DNA from: a virus
Taxonomy: Duplodnaviria > Heunggongvirae > Uroviricota > Caudoviricetes
Virus record (IMG/VR): IMGVR_UViG_2698536576_000002
DNA length: 26,379 nucleotides
Direction: 5' to 3' (one strand)
Shown: in pieces, positions 2,007 to 21,263 of the stretch
Position numbering within the stretch: the first letter of the stretch is position 1
Layout: each line of letters starts with the position of its first letter
The notes under the pieces: generated by a model
Told to the model about the DNA's origin: nothing
Seen by the model: only the letters and a program-made list of their open reading frames with translations
The model's database searches: none
Program-made: the position numbers and the translations under genes

Positions 2007-4599
2007 TTGCATATTCCTTAGCCCAGCGGGGCAGTGATAATGTCTTAATAGCTGGCCATTCATCGGTATTCAGGCAGTCAGACAGGGTTCGCAGATTGCG
2101 GTGATATTCCTGTTGACCTGCCAGTTTTGCTTCTTCGCCCATCATGAAAATTTCAACCGGATAACGTCCGCATTCAATAGTTGTGCTGGCAACCAGAAAA
2201 ACGAAAGTTGGCTGCACTCCAAACTGTGCTTCATAACCGTCACTGTAGAATGCATCCTGAACGTGATAGCGGTAGTCGTAATAAGCGGTTTTGAATCGTT
2301 GAATATCCGCCGTAGTTTTCACGTCCATGATCCAGTGAAATTCAGGGATAATTTTGTCCGGACGGCACCGACACAAAATTCCTGTTTCAGGATCTTCCCA
2401 GTAAATTGATGATTCAGCGTGTCCGGCGCTTTCAACAAGCCATTGCCCCAGCGGCAAAGCCATAACGCTTTGATACATGAGTTCAATTTTCCGGCCTTCT
2501 TCCGCAGTGATAACCGTTTTTCCTGTGCTTGCGCATTCCATCAGAAACGCTTTCTCTTCTTCTTTTCCGGCGTTTGTACGGCGGTTAAATTCAGGTGCTA
2601 CGATAAAGCGGTTACTGAATTCTTCCGGTTCAAGTACCCGGCAGTGGAAAGCAGTTCCTAAATCGAGCGTTTTTGTCTTTGTGGTGTCCACGGGGGCATT
2701 TTTACGCCACAAATATAGTGCCGGAGTATCAGCAATGTCATCGAGCTGAGACTTACTGATACCGGGACCCGCGTGGTAATTCTCATTCGAAATTCCGTAA
2801 TAAATACCTGGCTCTATGTCTTCTACGATTACGGGATCTGCGACTTCGCCAGTTTCATCACTGCAATCGCGATGGGGATCGCTGCCAGCATTCTCATTGT
2901 GCGGATGTTCAGCGCCTTCCATTTCCTCCGGATCATTTTCCTTAGCTTCAACCTGACTCTCTTCATCGAATGTTTCCTGGTATGTTGCGTCGCCCATCAC
3001 CGCACCACAGTCAGGGCAGTTATCCCCGCCAGTCTGGCCGCAGGCATTGCAGGCTATTTCCGGTTCCTGTTGCACTACTGGCTCAGGTTGATTCATATCT
3101 GGGCTGGTTTTTTCCGTTTCTGGCTGGTTCTGGTACACACAATCGCGAGTCTGGATCCCCTTTACCCATTTCGGATCGTTCGGGTCGCTAATTCCGTCAA
3201 CAAATTCACCACGTGATGCAGCAAGCAATTTATCGGCATCGACAGGATTTTTTGATGGAATGTTTTTCCGGGCTTCATGGAGTTCTGCCCGCAGTTCCTG
3301 ATATTTCGCATCAACAGAATTTACCTGTGACTGAGCATCCAGCGGCTGCGTGTCCTGATGATGTTCAGTTGCGTCCGGTTCCATTGTTTCAGCCTCTCCC
3401 TGTTCAACTGCCGTTGTTCCAGATGGTTGCGGTTTTTCTTCATCATCCTGTTTTCCTTCTTCTGTTACTCGCTGCGGCATCGGGGCAGAGGAGCGACCGC
3501 AGGCAATATCCACGATTTCCGGATCAGGGTTGGCATGATCGGTTTCAGTCAGTACTTTGTTCAGATATTCAGTGACGTGCGCGGGGATGACCTCGATCCC
3601 AATTGGTGCTTCTTTTACGGACGCAACCACGATGGCGCGGGAATAATCCAGCCCGCCAGGCATGGTGATGAATTTGTCGCGGAAAACAGAAAAGGGCGGT
3701 TTATTTTCAGCGATAATTTCCTCAATGCGTTTAGCGTGTGCCGGATGAAGGTTATAGATGTCCAGATCCATTGAACGGGCCAGTACGCCAGTGGCTACGT
3801 CGCGCGCCAGTGACGTCAGATCGTGTACGAAACCTTCGCCGCGATCGGTGAGGTTTCCGCCGCCAGCATTAGCACCGGAAGCCGTGCGAGTGATGTGTGA
3901 AACACGATTACCCTTCATCCACTCTTTTGTCAGCAGTCCTCGATCGGTGTAGTCAGCGTTCAGGTATGCTTCGAAAAAAGCAGTTATCAGTCCCAGGTTT
4001 GAATTACCAGGATTAGGGAAAACTTTGTCAGTGTCACGAACCAGTTTGTGGAGTTCGCGAATTTCCAGCGGGTCGAGCAGGCTGGTTTTGTGGGAAACAG
4101 CCAGGGCAGTAACAGCCGGTAGTTCTTCAGCCCGAGCAATGTGTAATGCCTGGAGTCCGTCGCGTGAAACGTGCGTTACCGGTTTTTCGCTGCCGTGTTG
4201 AGCAAGCCAACGAATGGGCAGTTCCTGGCCAGAAATTGGGAGTAGCATATTCTCCTCAATCTCAGTCATGTCTTCGCCGTTGACGTTGGTATTGCCTTGA
4301 TAGTGAGCGTTGTCTGGTGCTGCTCCCGGTTTTAGTTCCCATGTCATGGAGTCTTTGCTGAGTTGATAGCGTTCACTCCAGGTAAAATCGATCTCACCTT
4401 CAGCGGGCAGGTCATTAACGACAGGAAAATTCGTGGCAACAGCTTTAAAATAGCTGCTCAGTTTTTTACCTGACTTAACGATCAGGTAGTCCAGAGTGGC
4501 ACAGGTCGATTCAAAATCGTTGCTTGCCCACAGGACGACGTCAGGTTCACCGGATGATTTTTTCGCTTTCCGTAACAGGAAGAGTGGTTTTGTGCTCAT
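1999..4599 (-). CDS. recE: RecE exonuclease VIII, 866 aa
   Basis: ORF 1999..4599, [30 protein letters not shown]...; full-length RecE-like. Confidence 0.9.
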
Positions 4600-5883: not shown

Positions 5884-6372
5884 ATGTTGGATGTATTTAC
5901 TCCATTGTTGAAACTTTTTGCTAACGAGCCACTCGAAAGACTTATGTATACGATTATCATTTTTGGTCTCACTCTCTGGCTGATACCGAAAGAGTTTACT
6001 GTCGCATTCAATGCTTATACTGAAATACCTTGGCTCTTTCAGATTATCGTTTTTGCCTTTTCTTTCGTGGTCGCCATTTCCTTCTCAAGATTGCGAGCAC
6101 ATATTCAAAAGCATTATTCATTACTACCAGAGCAACGAGTATTGCTTCGTTTATCTGAGAAAGAAATCGCTGTATTTAAAGATTTCCTTAAAACAGGAAA
6201 TCTTATTATCACTTCTCCTTGCCGTAACCCGGTTATGAAAAAATTAGAACGGAAGGGCATCATTCAACATCAGAGTGATAGCGCAAACTGTTCTTATTAT
6301 CTCGTCACCGAAAAATACTCCCATTTTATGAAGTTATTCTGGAACAGCAGGAGTAGACGTTTTAATCGTTAG
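5884..6372 (+). CDS. sieB: SieB superinfection exclusion protein, 162 aa, membrane protein
   Basis: ORF 5761..6372; internal start MLDVFTPLLKLFANEPLERLMYTIIIFGLTLWLIPKEF; hydrophobic N-terminal half. Confidence 0.8.
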   Translation: MLDVFTPLLKLFANEPLERLMYTIIIFGLTLWLIPKEFTVAFNAYTEIPWLFQIIVFAFSFVVAISFSRLRAHIQKHYSLLPEQRVLLRLSEKEIAVFKDFLKTGNLIITSPCRNPVMKKLERKGIIQHQSDSANCSYYLVTEKYSHFMKLFWNSRSRRFNR

Positions 6373-6524
6373 CTTACTGTGTGCTTCTCCAACCATCGGC
6401 GCGCACCAGTTTCGGTTTTAAATGTTTTGCTTTTGGTATACGTCATGGCAGTGAACGTTCCATCCTGGTTGGGGAACACGCCGCACACCAGGGATTCGTT
6501 GTTGCCGAGGTCGATTTTTTGCAT
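6369..6524 (-). CDS. ydaF: YdaF-like small protein, 51 aa (hand-translated)
   Basis: Minus strand reads MQKIDLGNNESLVCGVFPNQDGTFTAMTYTKSKTFKTETGARRWLEKHTVS; its stop overlaps the sieB stop (convergent). Confidence 0.6.
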   Translation of the reverse strand: MQKIDLGNNESLVCGVFPNQDGTFTAMTYTKSKTFKTETGARRWLEKHTVS

Positions 6525-6534
6525 TTTGCGAATC

Positions 6535-6669
6535 TCACATCTTGTTGCTACGTATAGCGACTTCTGCCTGCCAGAGATCCCAGTCGTTGCTGCGTAAAGC
6601 CTGCACAGCCTGGTTGTAAGTGATACCGCAACAATCCATCAAATACTGAACTACTTCGTAATGCACCAT
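6535..6669 (-). CDS. ydaG: YdaG-like small protein, 44 aa (hand-translated)
   Basis: Minus strand reads MVHYEVVQYLMDCCGITYNQAVQALRSNDWDLWQAEVAIRSNKM. Confidence 0.6.
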   Translation of the reverse strand: MVHYEVVQYLMDCCGITYNQAVQALRSNDWDLWQAEVAIRSNKM

Positions 6670-6840
6670 CTTATCTATCCCCTTAACGCCGGGTGGCGGA
6701 ACTAACTGCTGCACTGCAAAATTTGAATCCCGCCGTCATGTTCATACGCCTCGGGCTGGCTACTTAACCCCTGACCACTGCCTGGTAACTCGAAGTATTG
6801 CCCGGCGTTCTGTGGGGCGGGGTGGGTTGGTAGGTATATA

Positions 6841-6881
6841 ATGTACTTTGTGTTCATCATTGTAAAGTACTTTAAGTACAT
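6841..6881. promoter_or_regulatory. OL-like operator pair: two 17-bp imperfect palindromes with invariant ATGTACT half-site (6841-6857 and 6865-6881)
   Basis: ATGTACTttgTGTTCAT and, on the minus strand, ATGTACTtaaAGTACTT; centres 24 bp apart; located between the repressor gene 3' end and the leftward small genes. Confidence 0.45.
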
Positions 6882-6956
6882 TTTATGTATAAAAAAATGA
6901 GACGGGATAAAGTGAAGCACAAACCCGGAGGGGGACGCTACCGGATTTATGCTGGT

Positions 6957-7376
6957 TTAAGAGGCTTTTTGTTTTTTCTTTCGTGCTAACTCTTCGTAAA
7001 TTGCATTGTACTTCTGTTTTTTCTCCTCAAGAGTTTTTAAAAGTTCATCTGTCTCACTGTCAGGGAGCTCGTCCAGAAGGTCAATGATGATTTTTTGTCT
7101 TGGATTTAACTCCTGATAGAAACGTATCTGTCCACTTTCTTCTGTATCCTCTCCCAAAAGATAGGTTGGTGTTGTTCCAATGAGTGTTGCTAATTCCCTT
7201 AATTTCTCTCGGCGAGGAATTGTTTCACCATTAAACCATTTGCTAACCGCTTTTGGTGTTAATTTCATTCGACGGGCAATTTCTGCCTGCCTTCCATGTT
7301 GTTCATAACCAGCGTTTTCACAGGCTAGCGCAAGCCTACTGGCGAACTCTTTACGCGCTTTATCTTCATGAACCAT
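6957..7376 (-). CDS. racR: Prophage repressor, XRE-family helix-turn-helix (RacR-like by position), 139 aa
   Basis: ORF 6957..7376; HTH segment QAEIARRMKLTPKAVSKWFNGETIP; charged, coiled-coil-like C-terminus; divergent from the cro-like gene. Confidence 0.6.
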   Translation of the reverse strand: MVHEDKARKEFASRLALACENAGYEQHGRQAEIARRMKLTPKAVSKWFNGETIPRREKLRELATLIGTTPTYLLGEDTEESGQIRFYQELNPRQKIIIDLLDELPDSETDELLKTLEEKKQKYNAIYEELARKKKQKAS

Positions 7377-7396
7377 AAGTTCAATGATATTCGCTC

Positions 7397-7441
7397 TTGA
7401 ATGTACTGTCAGTTCTGTTATAGCATGTACTCAAAGTTCAC
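7397..7441. promoter_or_regulatory. OR-like divergent promoter/operator region: sites ATGTACTgtcAGTTCTG (7401-7417) and ATGTACTcaaAGTTCAC (7425-7441); candidate rightward promoter TTGAAT-16-TATAGC
   Basis: Read from sequence; same half-site and same 24-bp centre spacing as the OL-like pair; the sites overlap the -35 and -10/+1 of the candidate cro promoter. Confidence 0.45.
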
Positions 7442-7455
7442 ATTGTGAGGATGAT

Positions 7456-7710
7456 ATGAACCAGAAAACACTTGAAGATGTAATCAAAACTGTTCGCGTT
7501 TCTGTTGTGGCCGACGTTTGTGGTGTCAGCCAAAGAGCAATCTACAAATGGATGGATAACGGAAAATTGCCTCGCACAGAATATACCGGCGAAACAAATT
7601 ACGCTGAAAAAATCGCTCATGCATCAAACGGATTATTTTCTGCCGATGCAATTTTAACTATTGGCAGAAATAAAACTACTACGAAAAAGCTGATGGGAGT
7701 TGATTCATGA
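7456..7710 (+). CDS. Cro-like small HTH regulator (YdaS-like by position), 84 aa
   Basis: ORF 7384..7710; start MNQKTLEDVIK with GAGGATGA upstream; HTH segment VADVCGVSQRAIYKWMDNGKLP; stop overlaps the next start (ATGA). Confidence 0.6.
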   Translation: MNQKTLEDVIKTVRVSVVADVCGVSQRAIYKWMDNGKLPRTEYTGETNYAEKIAHASNGLFSADAILTIGRNKTTTKKLMGVDS

Positions 7711-8129
7711 AAATCAAGCATGAGCACATCGAATCAGTGTTGTTAGCCCTGGCAGCCGAAAAAGGGCAGGCGTGGGTCGCTAACGCAATTACTGAAGAAT
7801 ATCTGCACCAGGGGGGCGGCGAATTGCCCCTGGTACCAGGCAAGGACTGGAACAATCAGCAGAATATCTATCATCGTTGGTTGAAAGGTGAAACGAATGC
7901 GCAAAGGGAAAAAATTCAGAAACTGATCCCTGCGGTTCTGGCAATTCTTCCTCGCGAGCTGCGTCACCGACTCTGCATCTTCGATACCTTGGAACGCCGT
8001 GCATTACTGGCGGCACAGGATGCACTGAGTACGGCAATTGATGCGCATGATGATGCAGTCCAGGCCGTTTACCGTAAAGCACATTTCAGCGGCGGCGGTT
8101 CTCCTAGCGATTCTGTCGTAGTGCATTGA
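7707..8129 (+). CDS. ydaT: YdaT-like protein (CII-position), 140 aa
   Basis: ORF 7707..8129 MKIKHEHIESVLLALAAEKGQAWVANAITEEYL; translationally coupled to the cro-like gene. Confidence 0.65.
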   Translation: MKIKHEHIESVLLALAAEKGQAWVANAITEEYLHQGGGELPLVPGKDWNNQQNIYHRWLKGETNAQREKIQKLIPAVLAILPRELRHRLCIFDTLERRALLAAQDALSTAIDAHDDAVQAVYRKAHFSGGGSPSDSVVVH

Positions 8130-8142
8130 TTGAAATTAATCG

Positions 8143-8164
8143 TACCGAACTGTTTTGTTCGGTA
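8143..8164 (+). other. Hairpin TACCGAAC-N6-GTTCGGTA after ydaT (no clear U-tract)
   Basis: Perfect 8-bp inverted repeat read from sequence, 14 nt after the ydaT stop. Confidence 0.3.
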
Positions 8165-8174
8165 TCAGTTAAAT

Positions 8175-8615
8175 GTAACGCTGCGAGCGTTACAAGGTGA
8201 AAACAAATGGCTTCAAACTGGATAAAGCTCGAAGTTATTACGCCGGATAAGCCGGAAATATTCAGGCTTGCTGAGATTCTGAATATTGATCCAGATGCCG
8301 CATTAGGGAAAGTCATTCGCTTCTGGGCATGGGCGGATCAACAAATGATAGACGGTAACGCAGAGTGTAACGCTCGAGGCGTTACAAAAAGTGCAATAGA
8401 CCGTATCACTTTTATGGCTGGTTTTGCTGATGCGTTAATTCAGGTTGGATGGCTGGTCGAAAGTGATGGAGTGCTTTCACTACCAAACTTTGAGCGTCAT
8501 AACGGAAAAAGCTCGAAAAAACGGGCGGTTACAAACGAGAGAGTTACAAAAATACGCGAACTGAAGCGAAAAGGTAACGCTGCCAGCGTTACACAAACGG
8601 ATCAAAAAGCGTTAC
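8175..8615. repeat. Iteron-like set: three 19-bp palindromes GTAACGCT-N3-AGCGTTAC (8175-8193, 8367-8385, 8574-8592) plus half-sites (8525-8532, 8541-8547, 8608-8615)
   Basis: Read from sequence; first copy 14 bp upstream of the ydaU start, the others inside its 5' third. Confidence 0.55.
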
Positions 8616-8995
8616 CAGAGGAAGAGGAAGAGGAAGATATAAATACTGATCTCCCCCTAAATCCCCCTCGGCAAAAACGAGCGTCTAAACAATTCGAGCC
8701 GGAGGCCATTGCTCTGCCCGACTGGTTGCCAGAAACACTCTGGAATGAGTGGGTCCAGTTCAGGCAGGCATTGCGAAAACCGATTCGAACGGAGCAGGGC
8801 GCTAACGGGGCGATACGGGAACTGGAAAAATTCCGCCAGCAGGGTTTTACCCCTGAGCAGGTGATTCGACACAGCATCGCCAATGAATACCAGGGCTTGT
8901 TCGCGCCGAAAAGTGTTCGGCCTGAGACGTTGCTCCGACAGGTTAACACTGTCTCGTTTCCGGACAGTGCGATCCCGCCAGGCTTCAGGGGGTAA
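8207..8995 (+). CDS. ydaU: Replication initiator-like protein (YdaU-like, O-position), 262 aa
   Basis: ORF 8207..8995; AAGGTGA RBS; acidic linker EEEEEED; precedes a DnaC-like gene. Confidence 0.65.
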   Translation: MASNWIKLEVITPDKPEIFRLAEILNIDPDAALGKVIRFWAWADQQMIDGNAECNARGVTKSAIDRITFMAGFADALIQVGWLVESDGVLSLPNFERHNGKSSKKRAVTNERVTKIRELKRKGNAASVTQTDQKALPEEEEEEDINTDLPLNPPRQKRASKQFEPEAIALPDWLPETLWNEWVQFRQALRKPIRTEQGANGAIRELEKFRQQGFTPEQVIRHSIANEYQGLFAPKSVRPETLLRQVNTVSFPDSAIPPGFRG

Positions 8996-13239: not shown

Positions 13240-14103
13240 CTCCTATAAAACATGCATTATGAATGCTCCTTTTGAGGAGTTATGTCAAGCTGTTATGAAA
13301 CACATAATTGATATGTTGATTAGAGGAGTAGATAGAATAAATATGGTTGTTTTTGGTGTAACTACTTGTTTTTCTTTTGGTTTATGCATTCTGTGTGTTA
13401 GGAATAAGTTATTAAAGTTTAATCAAGAAATCTCGATGCATTCCACATAGATTACTGTTACTGAACCTTATTGTGTGCATTAGTTGTGTTCTGAAATTTC
13501 AGCTTAATTATTTATGATATATTTTTTAACGATAAATGTTTTCCCAGGTGAAAGACAGTTGGGAATAAGATAAGTAATATATCATTAATCCTGATTATTC
13601 CCAGGTACCTTTACTGTGCATATAAATAAATCATATATGCATCAAATAGTGTAAAGGCATCCTTTTAGATATGTCTTATCAAATGTTAATGACTTGAGTG
13701 GGAAACATGATTCCAGCAACTTATCATGTGGCTACTTTATAAAAATAATGCCCATATAAAACAACAAGCGAAAAGGATTACGGATAAAAAAGGAGCGAGA
13801 TGTGCAAACTTGTTATTTTCCATGTTTAACCACCTTAAATAATTGATGATGACGGGATGATTGCATCTGTAATGCTTTTATTGAAATGTTATGATAAAAA
13901 AGAACTTTTTCATAACATTAAAATGTAATTTAGCTAATCGTTTTTAATAATAAGTGTCGTATTTCTATCCTTGTACCAGCTATTTGATATGTAGTGTTTG
14001 TTCATGCTATGTGGGGCTTTACACCATAGCCAGTTTATTTATACTTTATTCGTCAGCCTGAACAACTGGCATCTGCTGCACTGCGCCATAGAGAGATTGA
14101 GAA

Positions 14104-14703
14104 ATGGCGCATATACAACTGGTCAAACAAACTTCTTCTGGTTTACTTCTCCCGGCGACGCCGGAGAGTTGTGATTTTCTGCATCAAATTAAAATAGGCG
14201 AGTGGATACACGCTGATTTTAAGCGTGTGCGTAACTACGCATTCCACAAGCGTTTTTTCAAACTCCTGCAACTGGGATTCGATTACTGGACTCCGGTCGG
14301 TGGGGCGATCACGCCTCGCGAACGAGAACTGCTGTCTGGTTTCGTTGATTACCTGTGCGAATCAGTTGGTCGGGAACACACGCCAGCCCTGAGTGATGCC
14401 GCAGAGCAATATCTGAATACAGTTGCGACACGCAGAACCCGGGATGCGGCATTGCTAAAGTCGTTTGAGGCTTTTCGCGAGTGGGTAACCATTCAGGCTG
14501 GATTTTACACCGAACATTTTTATCCGGACGGTAGCCATGGGCGTCGGGCGAAATCCATCGCTTTTGCGAATATGGACGAAACCGAGTTTCAGCAGGTTTA
14601 TAAATCTGTTCTGAATGTGCTGTGGAACTGGATTCTGTTCCGTAAATTTTCCTCTCTGGAACAAGTCGAAAATGTGGCCGCGCAGCTGCTGGAGTTTGCG
14701 TAA
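14104..14703 (+). CDS. Phage nin-region protein (DUF1367-like), 199 aa
   Basis: ORF track; position immediately upstream of the ybcO-like gene and Q; family assignment from memory only. Confidence 0.45.
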   Translation: MAHIQLVKQTSSGLLLPATPESCDFLHQIKIGEWIHADFKRVRNYAFHKRFFKLLQLGFDYWTPVGGAITPRERELLSGFVDYLCESVGREHTPALSDAAEQYLNTVATRRTRDAALLKSFEAFREWVTIQAGFYTEHFYPDGSHGRRAKSIAFANMDETEFQQVYKSVLNVLWNWILFRKFSSLEQVENVAAQLLEFA

Positions 14704-20512: not shown

Positions 20513-21263
20513 TGATTTTTGCGCCTTTATTCTGACTCACGGGCGACCGGAAAAAGTTCTGACTTACCGGACGTTGCGTCGTGCTGGCTATACCGGGAAA
20601 ATTTTTATCGTTGTTGATGATGAAGATAAGACACGGCATCAGTACATGGCTGAATTTGGTGAACAGGTGCTGGTATTTTCCAAAGCCGATATCGCCAGTC
20701 GTTTTGACGAAGCCGATAATTTTGGTGACCGCCGCTCAATTTTTTACGCCCGTAATGCCTGTTTCGACCTGGCAAAACTGGTCGGGTGTAAATACTTCAT
20801 TCAGCTCGATGATGATTATCACGAGTTCCAGTTTCGGGTGGATCGCAACTATGACCAGGCCTATTTTCCGATAAGGAAACTGGATGCGATCCTTTCTGAA
20901 ATGCTGGCGTACTACGAATCAATACCTGTTCTTTCCATCGCTATGTCGCAGGGCGGGGATTTTCTTGGTGACAATGGCGGCCATGCTTCGTGGGTGAAAC
21001 GCAAGGCAATGAACAGCTTTATCTGTTCGGTTGATCGACCGTTCTCATTCATGGGGCGCATTAACGAGGATGTGAATACGTACACGAATCTCGGTCGCTG
21101 TGGTGAATTGTTTATGACGATCGGTGCTGTCCAGTTAGGGCAGAAACAGACGCAGAAAAACAGCGGCGGAATGACCGAGCTGTATCTGGATTCCGGAACC
21201 TACGTTAACCGAATCCCATCTCGGCAAGGAGCTGCTGGAAAAAGTCGAGCTGACGGAGGATAA
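20505..21263 (+). pseudogene. YdaY-like gene with GT-A-like motifs; 3' end replaced by J-derived sequence
   Basis: Start MRDDFCAFILTHGRPEKV with GGGGAGGAGG upstream; IFIVVDDED and LDDDY motifs; from about 21187 the DNA encodes J-homologous sequence in another frame. Confidence 0.45.

Follow-up and report, generated by a model that had tools for sequence, protein, structure and literature searches.

An HK022/933W-type operator set predicted for the immunity switch of a Rac-like lambdoid prophage

The closest described counterparts of the locus presented here are the immunity regions of phages HK022 and 933W. The locus is located at positions 6841-7441 of a 26,379-bp stretch of IMG/VR virus record IMGVR_UViG_2698536576_000002 (Caudoviricetes); this whole stretch, called the window below, covers part of a prophage. 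It contains a gene for a repressor of 139 amino acids (aa), a divergent cro-like gene and five operator-like sites. With a probability of about 0.9, we read these sites, to which the repressor is predicted to bind, as operators of the HK022/933W family that serve the immunity switch in a Rac-like lambdoid prophage.

In the HK022 record X16093.1, potential repressor sites are annotated in oR, with their centres at 3007, on the start codon of cI, and at 3040 and 3064, and in oL, with centres at 2208 and 2232. HK022 CI has 235 aa and carries an Ala-Gly site for cleavage in addition to its S24 domain. A third left operator, OL3, is positioned 53 bp from OL2, with loop-like sensitivities to DNase I that CI causes in the OL2-OL3 gap, and a further site, OFR, is found ~270 bp to the right of OR1. 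A passage in PMC8053113, citing Carlson & Little 1993, states that HK022 CI is highly cooperative in binding adjacent operators in OR and OL and that it loops OL to OR. In 933W, where operators OR1-3 and OL1-2 are annotated in GQ499361.1, site positions 2-5 (G, A/T, A, C) set the affinity for the repressor, and changes are tolerated at position 1, at positions 6-7 and in the centre (PMC3317979). The 933W repressor, with an OR spacing of 32/24 bp, has been reported not to bind OR1 and OR2 cooperatively (PMC3317979, PMC5977221).

Lambda-type repressors carry an S24-type C-terminal domain that serves in oligomerization, and the small repressors of Gifsy prophages are inactivated by LexA-controlled antirepressors (PMC3121763). 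The mRNAs of lambda cI and of paaR2, the short repressor gene of the cryptic prophage CP-933P, have been shown experimentally to be leaderless (PMC8630535). Also in CP-933P, YdaT was footprinted on the motif TTGATT-N6-AATCAA at the end of ydaS (PMC9986795).

Operator sites and promoters of the switch

The sites and the two divergent genes around which they are arranged are listed below; bits are scores against a position weight matrix (PWM) derived from HK022.

6841-6857: OL1, operator-like site ATGTACTTTGTGTTCAT, centre 6849, 14.1 bits
6865-6881: OL2, operator-like site, AAGTACTTTAAGTACAT on the plus strand and ATGTACTTAAAGTACTT on the minus strand, centre 6873, 17.9 bits
6957-7376, minus strand: immunity repressor gene, 139 aa, Pfam HTH_3, with an HK022-CI-like helix-turn-helix (HTH) domain at about residues 1-75, a linker and a helical C-terminal tail
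7368-7384: OR3, operator-like site ATGAACCATAAGTTCAA, centre 7376, 19.8 bits, the top match of the window
7401-7417: OR2, operator-like site ATGTACTGTCAGTTCTG, centre 7409, 14.9 bits
7425-7441: OR1, operator-like site ATGTACTCAAAGTTCAC, centre 7433, 16.4 bits
7456-7710, plus strand: cro-like gene, 84-aa HTH protein, 62% identical to HK022 Cro over 73 aa (E = 1e-34)

All five are versions of one 17-bp unit, the imperfect palindrome ATG(T/A)AC-N5-GT(A/T)CAT, with TG(T/A)AC as its half-site core. Centres are 24 bp apart both in the OL pair (6849/6873) and between OR2 and OR1 (7409/7433), and the centre of OR3, 33 bp from OR2, falls on the A of the ATG that starts the repressor gene. An earlier note on this DNA had proposed the two OL sites, OR2 and OR1 as repressor operators flanking the repressor gene. 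All four were found where it placed them, and the equal 24-bp spacing of both pairs was measured as it had claimed. It counted two sites in the repressor/cro gap; both are present, but OR comprises three, and OR3 had been missed. The ATGTACT half-site that it called invariant does occur in each of the four (at 6841, 7401 and 7425 on the plus strand, and at 6875-6881 on the minus strand), but its seventh base, T, is part of the variable centre, and relatives do not keep it invariant. With a distant fifth copy at 20641, the heptamer occurs five times against 2.4 expected, and 9 of 100 shuffles reached five or more, so that the note was also right to regard the heptamer alone as about as frequent as chance.

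Much stronger evidence comes from the PWM, which was symmetrised from only the five annotated operators of X16093.1 and is independent of the window. The five sites take ranks 1-5 in the 26-kb window (19.8, 17.9, 16.4, 14.9 and 14.1 bits). At 14.1 bits or more, 0.10 sites are expected per shuffle, and the mean shuffle maximum was 11.8 bits (300 shuffles). The sixth match, ATGTAGTGTTTGTTCAT at 13989-14005, scores 11.6 bits, about the shuffle maximum, and is probably a chance occurrence; it sits in a 650-bp AT-rich gap upstream of an open reading frame (ORF) at 14104.

The positions of the sites are those of the annotated HK022 operators. Counting OR3, the window has the HK022 spacings of 33 and 24 bp in oR and 24 bp in oL, and in the alignment OL1 pairs with oL 2201-2215, OL2 with oL 2225-2239, OR3 with oR3 3000-3014, OR2 with oR2 3033-3047 and OR1 with oR1 3057-3071. 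The HK022 17-mers (ATGTACTTAAAGTTCAT, ATGTACTATTGGTACTT, TTGAACCATAAGTTCAA, CTGTACTATCAGTTCCG and ATGAACCATAAGTTCAC) are plainly the same kind of site. HK022 and HK75 share with the window the TG(T/A)AC half-site in a 17-bp dyad, OR3 on the ATG, OR2 at -33 and OR1 at -57. The OL1/OL2 distance of 24 bp, the columns of the pL and pR hexamers, and a homologous DNA-binding domain (DBD), recognition helix and Cro are likewise common to HK022 and the window. The repressor is 58% identical to HK022 CI over residues 4-75 (tblastn, first 92 residues as query) and 46% identical over 99 aa, and the recognition helices are near-identical (TPKAVSKWFNGE in the window, TPKAISKWFNGE in HK022 CI).

The sites overlap three promoters.

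6838-6866, minus strand: PL-like promoter, TTTACA (6866..6861), 17-bp spacer, CATTAT (6843..6838), found by promoter scan
7397-7424, plus strand: PR promoter of cro, TTGAAT (7397-7402), 16-bp spacer, TATAGC (7419-7424), read from the sequence
7384-7412, minus strand: PRM-like promoter, CTGACA (7412..7407), 17-bp spacer, TATCAT (7389..7384), found by scan with 10/12 matches

PL is sigma-70-like and directed leftward, away from the repressor gene; OL1 lies inside its spacer with a 3-bp overlap with the -10 element, and OL2 abuts or overlaps the -35 element. Its hexamers, TTTACA and CATTAT, occupy the columns of the annotated HK022 pL (-35 TTTACA, -10 CATCAT). PR, which the earlier note had placed under the right-hand pair, is present there and aligns column for column with the annotated HK022 pR (-35 TTGACT, -10 CATAAT). 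OR2 occupies the PR spacer and includes the -35 of PRM, and OR1 is directly downstream of the PR -10, over the expected transcription start. The PRM -10 ends 7 nt before the repressor ATG, and despite sequence drift a TAnnnT hexamer is found at exactly that distance in 9 of 10 lineages compared. By analogy with lambda cI and PaaR2, transcription from PRM would start at or next to the ATG and probably yield a leaderless repressor mRNA.

A TG at 7416-7417 precedes the PR -10 and gives it an extended -10 context, which may compensate for the weak TATAGC. The context arises from the OR2 variant of this lineage, GTTCTG (versus GTTCCG); the -10 of relatives is CATAAT or TATAAT. Among the 81 closely related loci described below, the PR -10 is polymorphic (TATAGC, TATGGC, TATAAC, TATAGA and others).

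Nucleotide similarity to HK022 is confined to two islands, 6837-6895 (OL and PL, 80%) and 7216-7626 (70%), the latter comprising repressor codons 1-53, OR and most of cro. Rac-SA53, which has dicA/dicC immunity, shares the flanks of the window only up to 6705 and from 7693 onward. Together, the islands and these limits indicate that the operators, the DBD and cro travel together as a specificity cassette.

Conservation of the sites and the repressor

Over 6300-8200, the locus is 99.8% identical to Escherichia phage vB_EcoS-666R9, whose record encodes integrase, RecE/RecT, RacC, Kil, SieB and TrkG; it is on account of these genes that we call the prophage Rac-like. The cassette occurs at 96-99.8% identity in the phage-genome records vB_EcoS-666R9 and Tritos. 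With a coverage of at least 80%, positions 6830-7710 were found in 1047 of 5426 complete Escherichia coli genomes (~19%), including O157:H7 and O111 (O111:H2).

Variation within E. coli was examined in loci with a 99-100% identical repressor, of which 80 came from IMG/VR and one from a Shigella genome. The stretch of 260 bp that follows the repressor gene gave 46 haplotypes, drawn from the window together with 78 loci of IMG/VR and genome origin; variants were considered common if at least three haplotypes carried them, and columns were counted in 6800-6900. None of the 20 columns of the OL core half-sites holds a common variant, compared with 6 of the 10 columns in the 5-bp centres and 14 of the 71 other columns (core against centre, Fisher p = 0.0004; core against all remaining columns, 0.011). 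The same pattern over the site columns has been measured for the 933W repressor. Of the segregating sites in the repressor gene in the 81 loci, 12 are synonymous and 1 is nonsynonymous, and the gene is under purifying selection.

Nine further lineages were compared: Salmonella, Klebsiella (ST15-VIM1phi2.1), Raoultella, a metagenome contig, HK75, the Salmonella phages S9-5 and SF6, one 933W-like phage and one Pseudomonas phage. Their DBDs are from 45% upward identical to that of the window (HK75, 57%). All nine have sites at -32/-33 and -56/-57 from the repressor ATG, and a site centred on the ATG scores at least 9.5 in 9 of the 10 lineages compared, the exception being the Pseudomonas phage. 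Wherever the locus reaches that far, an OL pair is present with its sites 24 bp apart. The earlier note had named conservation in related prophages as a check on its proposal, and the sites withstood it both across 45-100% DBD identity and in the E. coli polymorphism. The weak outer half-site of OR2 (CAGAAC or CGGAAC) is kept in the HK022-type lineages, whereas the 933W-type, SF6 and Pseudomonas sites differ there. Scans for divergent relatives returned one locus with a 99% identical repressor from genome contigs and only 99-100% identical copies from viral contigs. The divergent lineages were obtained by protein search and from a collection of phages.

A protein search found short Salmonella relatives of 138-151 aa that are 62-66% identical over their full length, and relatives of 235-240 aa with an S24 domain in Raoultella and metagenomic contigs that are alike in the N-terminal domain only. 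A third OL site, 53 bp from OL2, accompanies the S24 relatives with an HK022-type DBD in HK75 (L090), S9-5 (L174), Klebsiella (L173) and Raoultella (L085), and OFR is present in these same relatives. The two short-repressor lineages, the window and Salmonella L082/L083, have no third OL site. In the window, the best candidate for one is a lone GTGAAG half-site near 6912-6917, which falls outside the top 20 PWM matches, and there is no site at the place corresponding to the alternative OL3 position annotated in HK75. Among those top 20 matches (down to 6.9 bits), none lies in 6890-6956 or 7450-7800, where OL3 and OFR counterparts were sought. An OFR-like sequence at 7713-7729, downstream of cro, has 3-4 mismatches, is not among the top PWM matches, lacks an L082/L085 counterpart and was rejected.

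Two database gene starts lie upstream of the conserved MVHE start, by 45 nt in P0015 (L083/L084) and by 12 nt in P0021 (L085), and both extensions cross OR sites; they are probably annotation artefacts. The site numbers in L085 are shifted because the called start is 12 nt upstream of its MVHEE start. Salmonella P0015 was considered as GfhR of Gifsy-3, since both have an in-frame upstream AUG, and was rejected because gfhR begins MTKVKHH (primers in the supplement of the paper). In Salmonella, a HigB/HigA-like pair is situated between the repressor gene and OL and resembles paaA2-parE2 after paaR2 in CP-933P.

The short repressor and competing explanations

Judged from its sequence, the repressor belongs to the small non-cleavable class of lambdoid repressors: it has 139 aa, an HTH domain and no Peptidase_S24 match in Pfam. 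Its alignment with HK022 CI and other S24 relatives stops just before their SAG (Ser-Ala-Gly) cleavage motif. An AlphaFold2 model contains the HTH domain at residues 1-74, a low-confidence linker at 77-86 and helices at 92-103 and 106-138, with block-mean model confidence (pLDDT) of ~78-91 in the helices of the ~55-aa tail. This tail is conserved in the 62-66% identical Salmonella homologues. The DicA subfamily profile (NF007257) matches residues 29-137 with E = 2.7e-15 and 56 bits, below its curated cut-off of 101 bits. A fold search with the tail gave matches at the level of HTH domains plus weak SinR-like full-length ones (E ~0.01), which is too little to assign it.

In the switch as we propose it, dimers of the repressor would bind the five sites through their HK022-CI-like helix-turn-helix, and the HK022-like Cro most likely acts on the same sites. 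Repressor on OL2/OL1 and OR2/OR1 would turn off PL and PR, the two early lytic promoters. Occupation of OR3, at high repressor or by Cro, would turn off PRM and so provide negative autoregulation. Because the recognition helices are nearly identical, cross-immunity with HK022-type phages is possible.

Compared with HK022, the window has a 139-aa repressor with a helical tail instead of a 235-aa CI with S24 domain and cleavage site, and it has neither OL3 nor OFR; after its cro comes a YdaT-type analogue of CII that has an operator to itself, and its PL leader is unrelated to HK022 putL. Its likeness to 933W consists in core sites of 15 bp that have G-(A/T)-A-C at positions 2-5 and tolerate change in the centre, only two OL sites, OR3 on the cI ATG, the OR spacing (32/24 bp in 933W), and a DBD 51% identical to that of the window repressor. 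933W differs in its recognition-helix residues (SSKGVSKWFNAE), in C/T at site position 1 and in its S24-type cleavable repressor.

Lambda is a more distant analogue. Its adjacent operator centres are also 24 bp apart, and the -35 of its PRM is close to OR2, not inside it. Lambda and the window have in common divergent PRM and PR with 17-bp dyads, a second operator set on PL across the repressor gene, and an established (lambda) or probable (window) leaderless repressor mRNA (PMC8630535). Lambda differs in its unrelated operator sequence and half-site, in three OL sites versus two, in OR3 placed upstream of the cI start and in a RecA-cleavable CI, and the window switch is an analogue of lambda OL/OR and not a member of it in the strict sense. 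The earlier note's comparison with lambda therefore stands in part: operator sets do flank the repressor and the right-hand pair does lie on the cro promoter, but HK022/933W, with three OR sites and OR3 on the ATG, is the closer model.

Among systems with short repressors, CP-933P likewise combines a CI-like repressor lacking a peptidase with a leaderless mRNA and OR/OL sets on PR/PRM and PL (PMC8630535), and has YdaT as CII analogue and TTGATT-N6-AATCAA at the end of its cro-like gene (PMC9986795). It differs in its operator consensus of GTTTAGTAA repeats and in the toxin-antitoxin pair that follows paaR2, where the window has nothing inserted between repressor and OL. PaaR2 begins MQKKE and the window repressor MVHEDK; the two proteins are set apart here by these start residues only. 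The Gifsy repressors GfoR, GtgR and GfhR, as well as DicA and RacR, resemble the window repressor in length (~136-150 aa), HTH plus short tail, and lack of an Ala-Gly/S24 module (PMC3121763). GfhR is distinguished by its MTKVKHH start, and the profile score given above keeps the window repressor below the DicA cut-off.

Several observations weigh against an immunity switch of this family. The repressor has no C-terminal oligomerization domain of the kind found in lambda-type repressors, and occupancy of the weak OR2 could consequently differ from that in HK022. Counterparts of OL3 and OFR are absent from the window. PR was not listed by the consensus promoter scan, because its second hexamer ends in C, and its -10 is weak by consensus. 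The predicted PRM -35 lies inside OR2, so that repressor bound there might repress rather than activate PRM, which makes the autoregulatory logic uncertain. No LexA box (CTGT-N8-ACAG) is present in the window, any CTG-N10-CAG site there having 7 or more mismatches to the LexA consensus, and no antirepressor family was recognized among the ORFs checked within these 26 kb, which cover part of the prophage. The repressor has its helical tail in place of the S24 domain, whose self-cleavage RecA activates, and it is a plausible guess that an antirepressor brings about induction here as it does in the Gifsy prophages.

One rival reading takes the sites for a chance clustering of heptamers and spacings, without function, in AT-rich intergenic DNA. 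The unenriched heptamer and the sixth PWM match at chance level would both suit such an origin, but five sites at or above 14.1 bits against 0.10 expected, scored with a matrix from another phage, would not; nor would positions exactly those of the annotated HK022 operators, a layout kept across genera, or half-site cores free of common variants in E. coli next to varying centres. Chance clustering is effectively refuted. The sites might instead be inherited relics, homologous to those of HK022, in a cryptic prophage whose 139-aa protein is a truncated S24-type CI and whose switch is dead. The missing S24 domain, OL3 and OFR would fit this, and many Rac-like elements are defective. We nevertheless regard it as very improbable. 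The tail is a conserved, confidently predicted helical module that recurs in the Salmonella homologues and is spanned by the DicA profile. Synonymous changes far outnumber nonsynonymous ones in the repressor, the operator cores are unchanged where neighbouring bases vary, and the cassette is present in the two phage-genome records and in about a fifth of the complete E. coli genomes.

A closer contest concerns cooperativity. The earlier note had deduced cooperative repressor dimers from the spacing, and this step fails: spacing is not sufficient, since HK022 is cooperative and 933W, with near-identical spacing, reportedly is not. The operators could be real yet bound without cooperativity, as reported for 933W, with individual affinity deciding how each site fills and the 24 bp being inherited geometry or a promoter constraint; we would put this somewhat short of even odds. 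Replacement of the S24 C-terminal domain by the ~55-aa tail and the lack of OL3 in both short-repressor lineages agree with it. On the other hand, 24 bp is kept in pairs that sit in different promoter registers (OL2/OL1 at the -35 and spacer, OR2/OR1 in the spacer and at +1), so promoter anatomy alone does not fix this spacing. A conserved weak OR2 half-site beside a strong OR1 is the classic set-up for cooperative filling, and PaaR2, another short lambdoid repressor, forms octamers (PMC8630535). Cooperative binding by the window repressor is plausible and not established, and an OL-OR loop of the HK022 kind might also form.

The operators predicted here are of a known kind, that of the HK022/933W family, in an ordinary lambdoid switch anatomy, and no novel type of regulatory element is involved. 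What is mildly unusual is that operators of the HK022 type are paired with a short repressor lacking the S24 cleavage domain; this pairing offers a natural comparison of cleavable and non-cleavable repressors on one operator set. It is possible, if on balance unlikely, that the locus derives from a domain swap in which the HK022-specificity DBD, Cro and the OL/OR geometry were kept, the RecA-cleavable S24 oligomerization domain was replaced by the ~55-aa helical tail and the loop-forming OL3 was lost. If so, and if the tail by itself supports pairwise cooperativity or serves in antirepressor docking, the geometry of lambdoid operators would not hinge on which kind of oligomerization domain is present, and one recombination event near the cleavage site would convert an SOS-cleavable switch into an antirepressor-controlled one, or the reverse.

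Neighbouring features

Three further features adjoin the switch.

6916-6953, minus strand: hairpin immediately behind the stop codon of the repressor gene (-19.4 kcal/mol, z = -5.1, 0/200 shuffles as stable)
7700-7717: YdaT (CII-like) operator motif TTGATT-N6-AATCAA, TTGATTCATGAAAATCAA, perfect, over the cro stop and ydaT start; not a repressor site
7707-8129, right-hand side of the switch: YdaT-family gene, Pfam YdaT_toxin

The hairpin probably acts as a terminator for the repressor transcript and would insulate that transcript from PL. It was not called by a terminator scan because of its weak T-run. The commonest polymorphisms of the region (6932-6935) fall in or beside its loop, and few are in stem columns.

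The PL leader (6715-6835, minus strand) is G+C-rich (CCAACCCACCCCGCCCCACAG...) and diverges from all relatives right after the PL -10. A put-like or other known RNA in this leader was rejected, as an Rfam search gave nothing relevant and no alignment with HK022 putL was obtained; no antiterminator gene or site was recognised.

The YdaT motif occurs once in perfect form in the window and once with 1 mismatch (716-733), against ~0.2 expected at one mismatch or fewer. By analogy with CP-933P, its place at 7700-7717 suggests PRE-type establishment control of the repressor.

To the right of the repressor, and divergent from it, follow the cro-like gene, the YdaT-family gene, an unassigned 262-aa ORF (8207-8995) and a DnaC/IstB-like gene. 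On the left, the sites are flanked by an ORF of 59 aa that is UBA-like, by a DUF1391 gene and by sieB. RefSeq names the genes of the cassette only as helix-turn-helix proteins and a YdaT-family toxin, and the map of OL1-2, OR1-3, PL, PR and PRM given here supplies predicted control sites for the cassette of those 1047 genomes.

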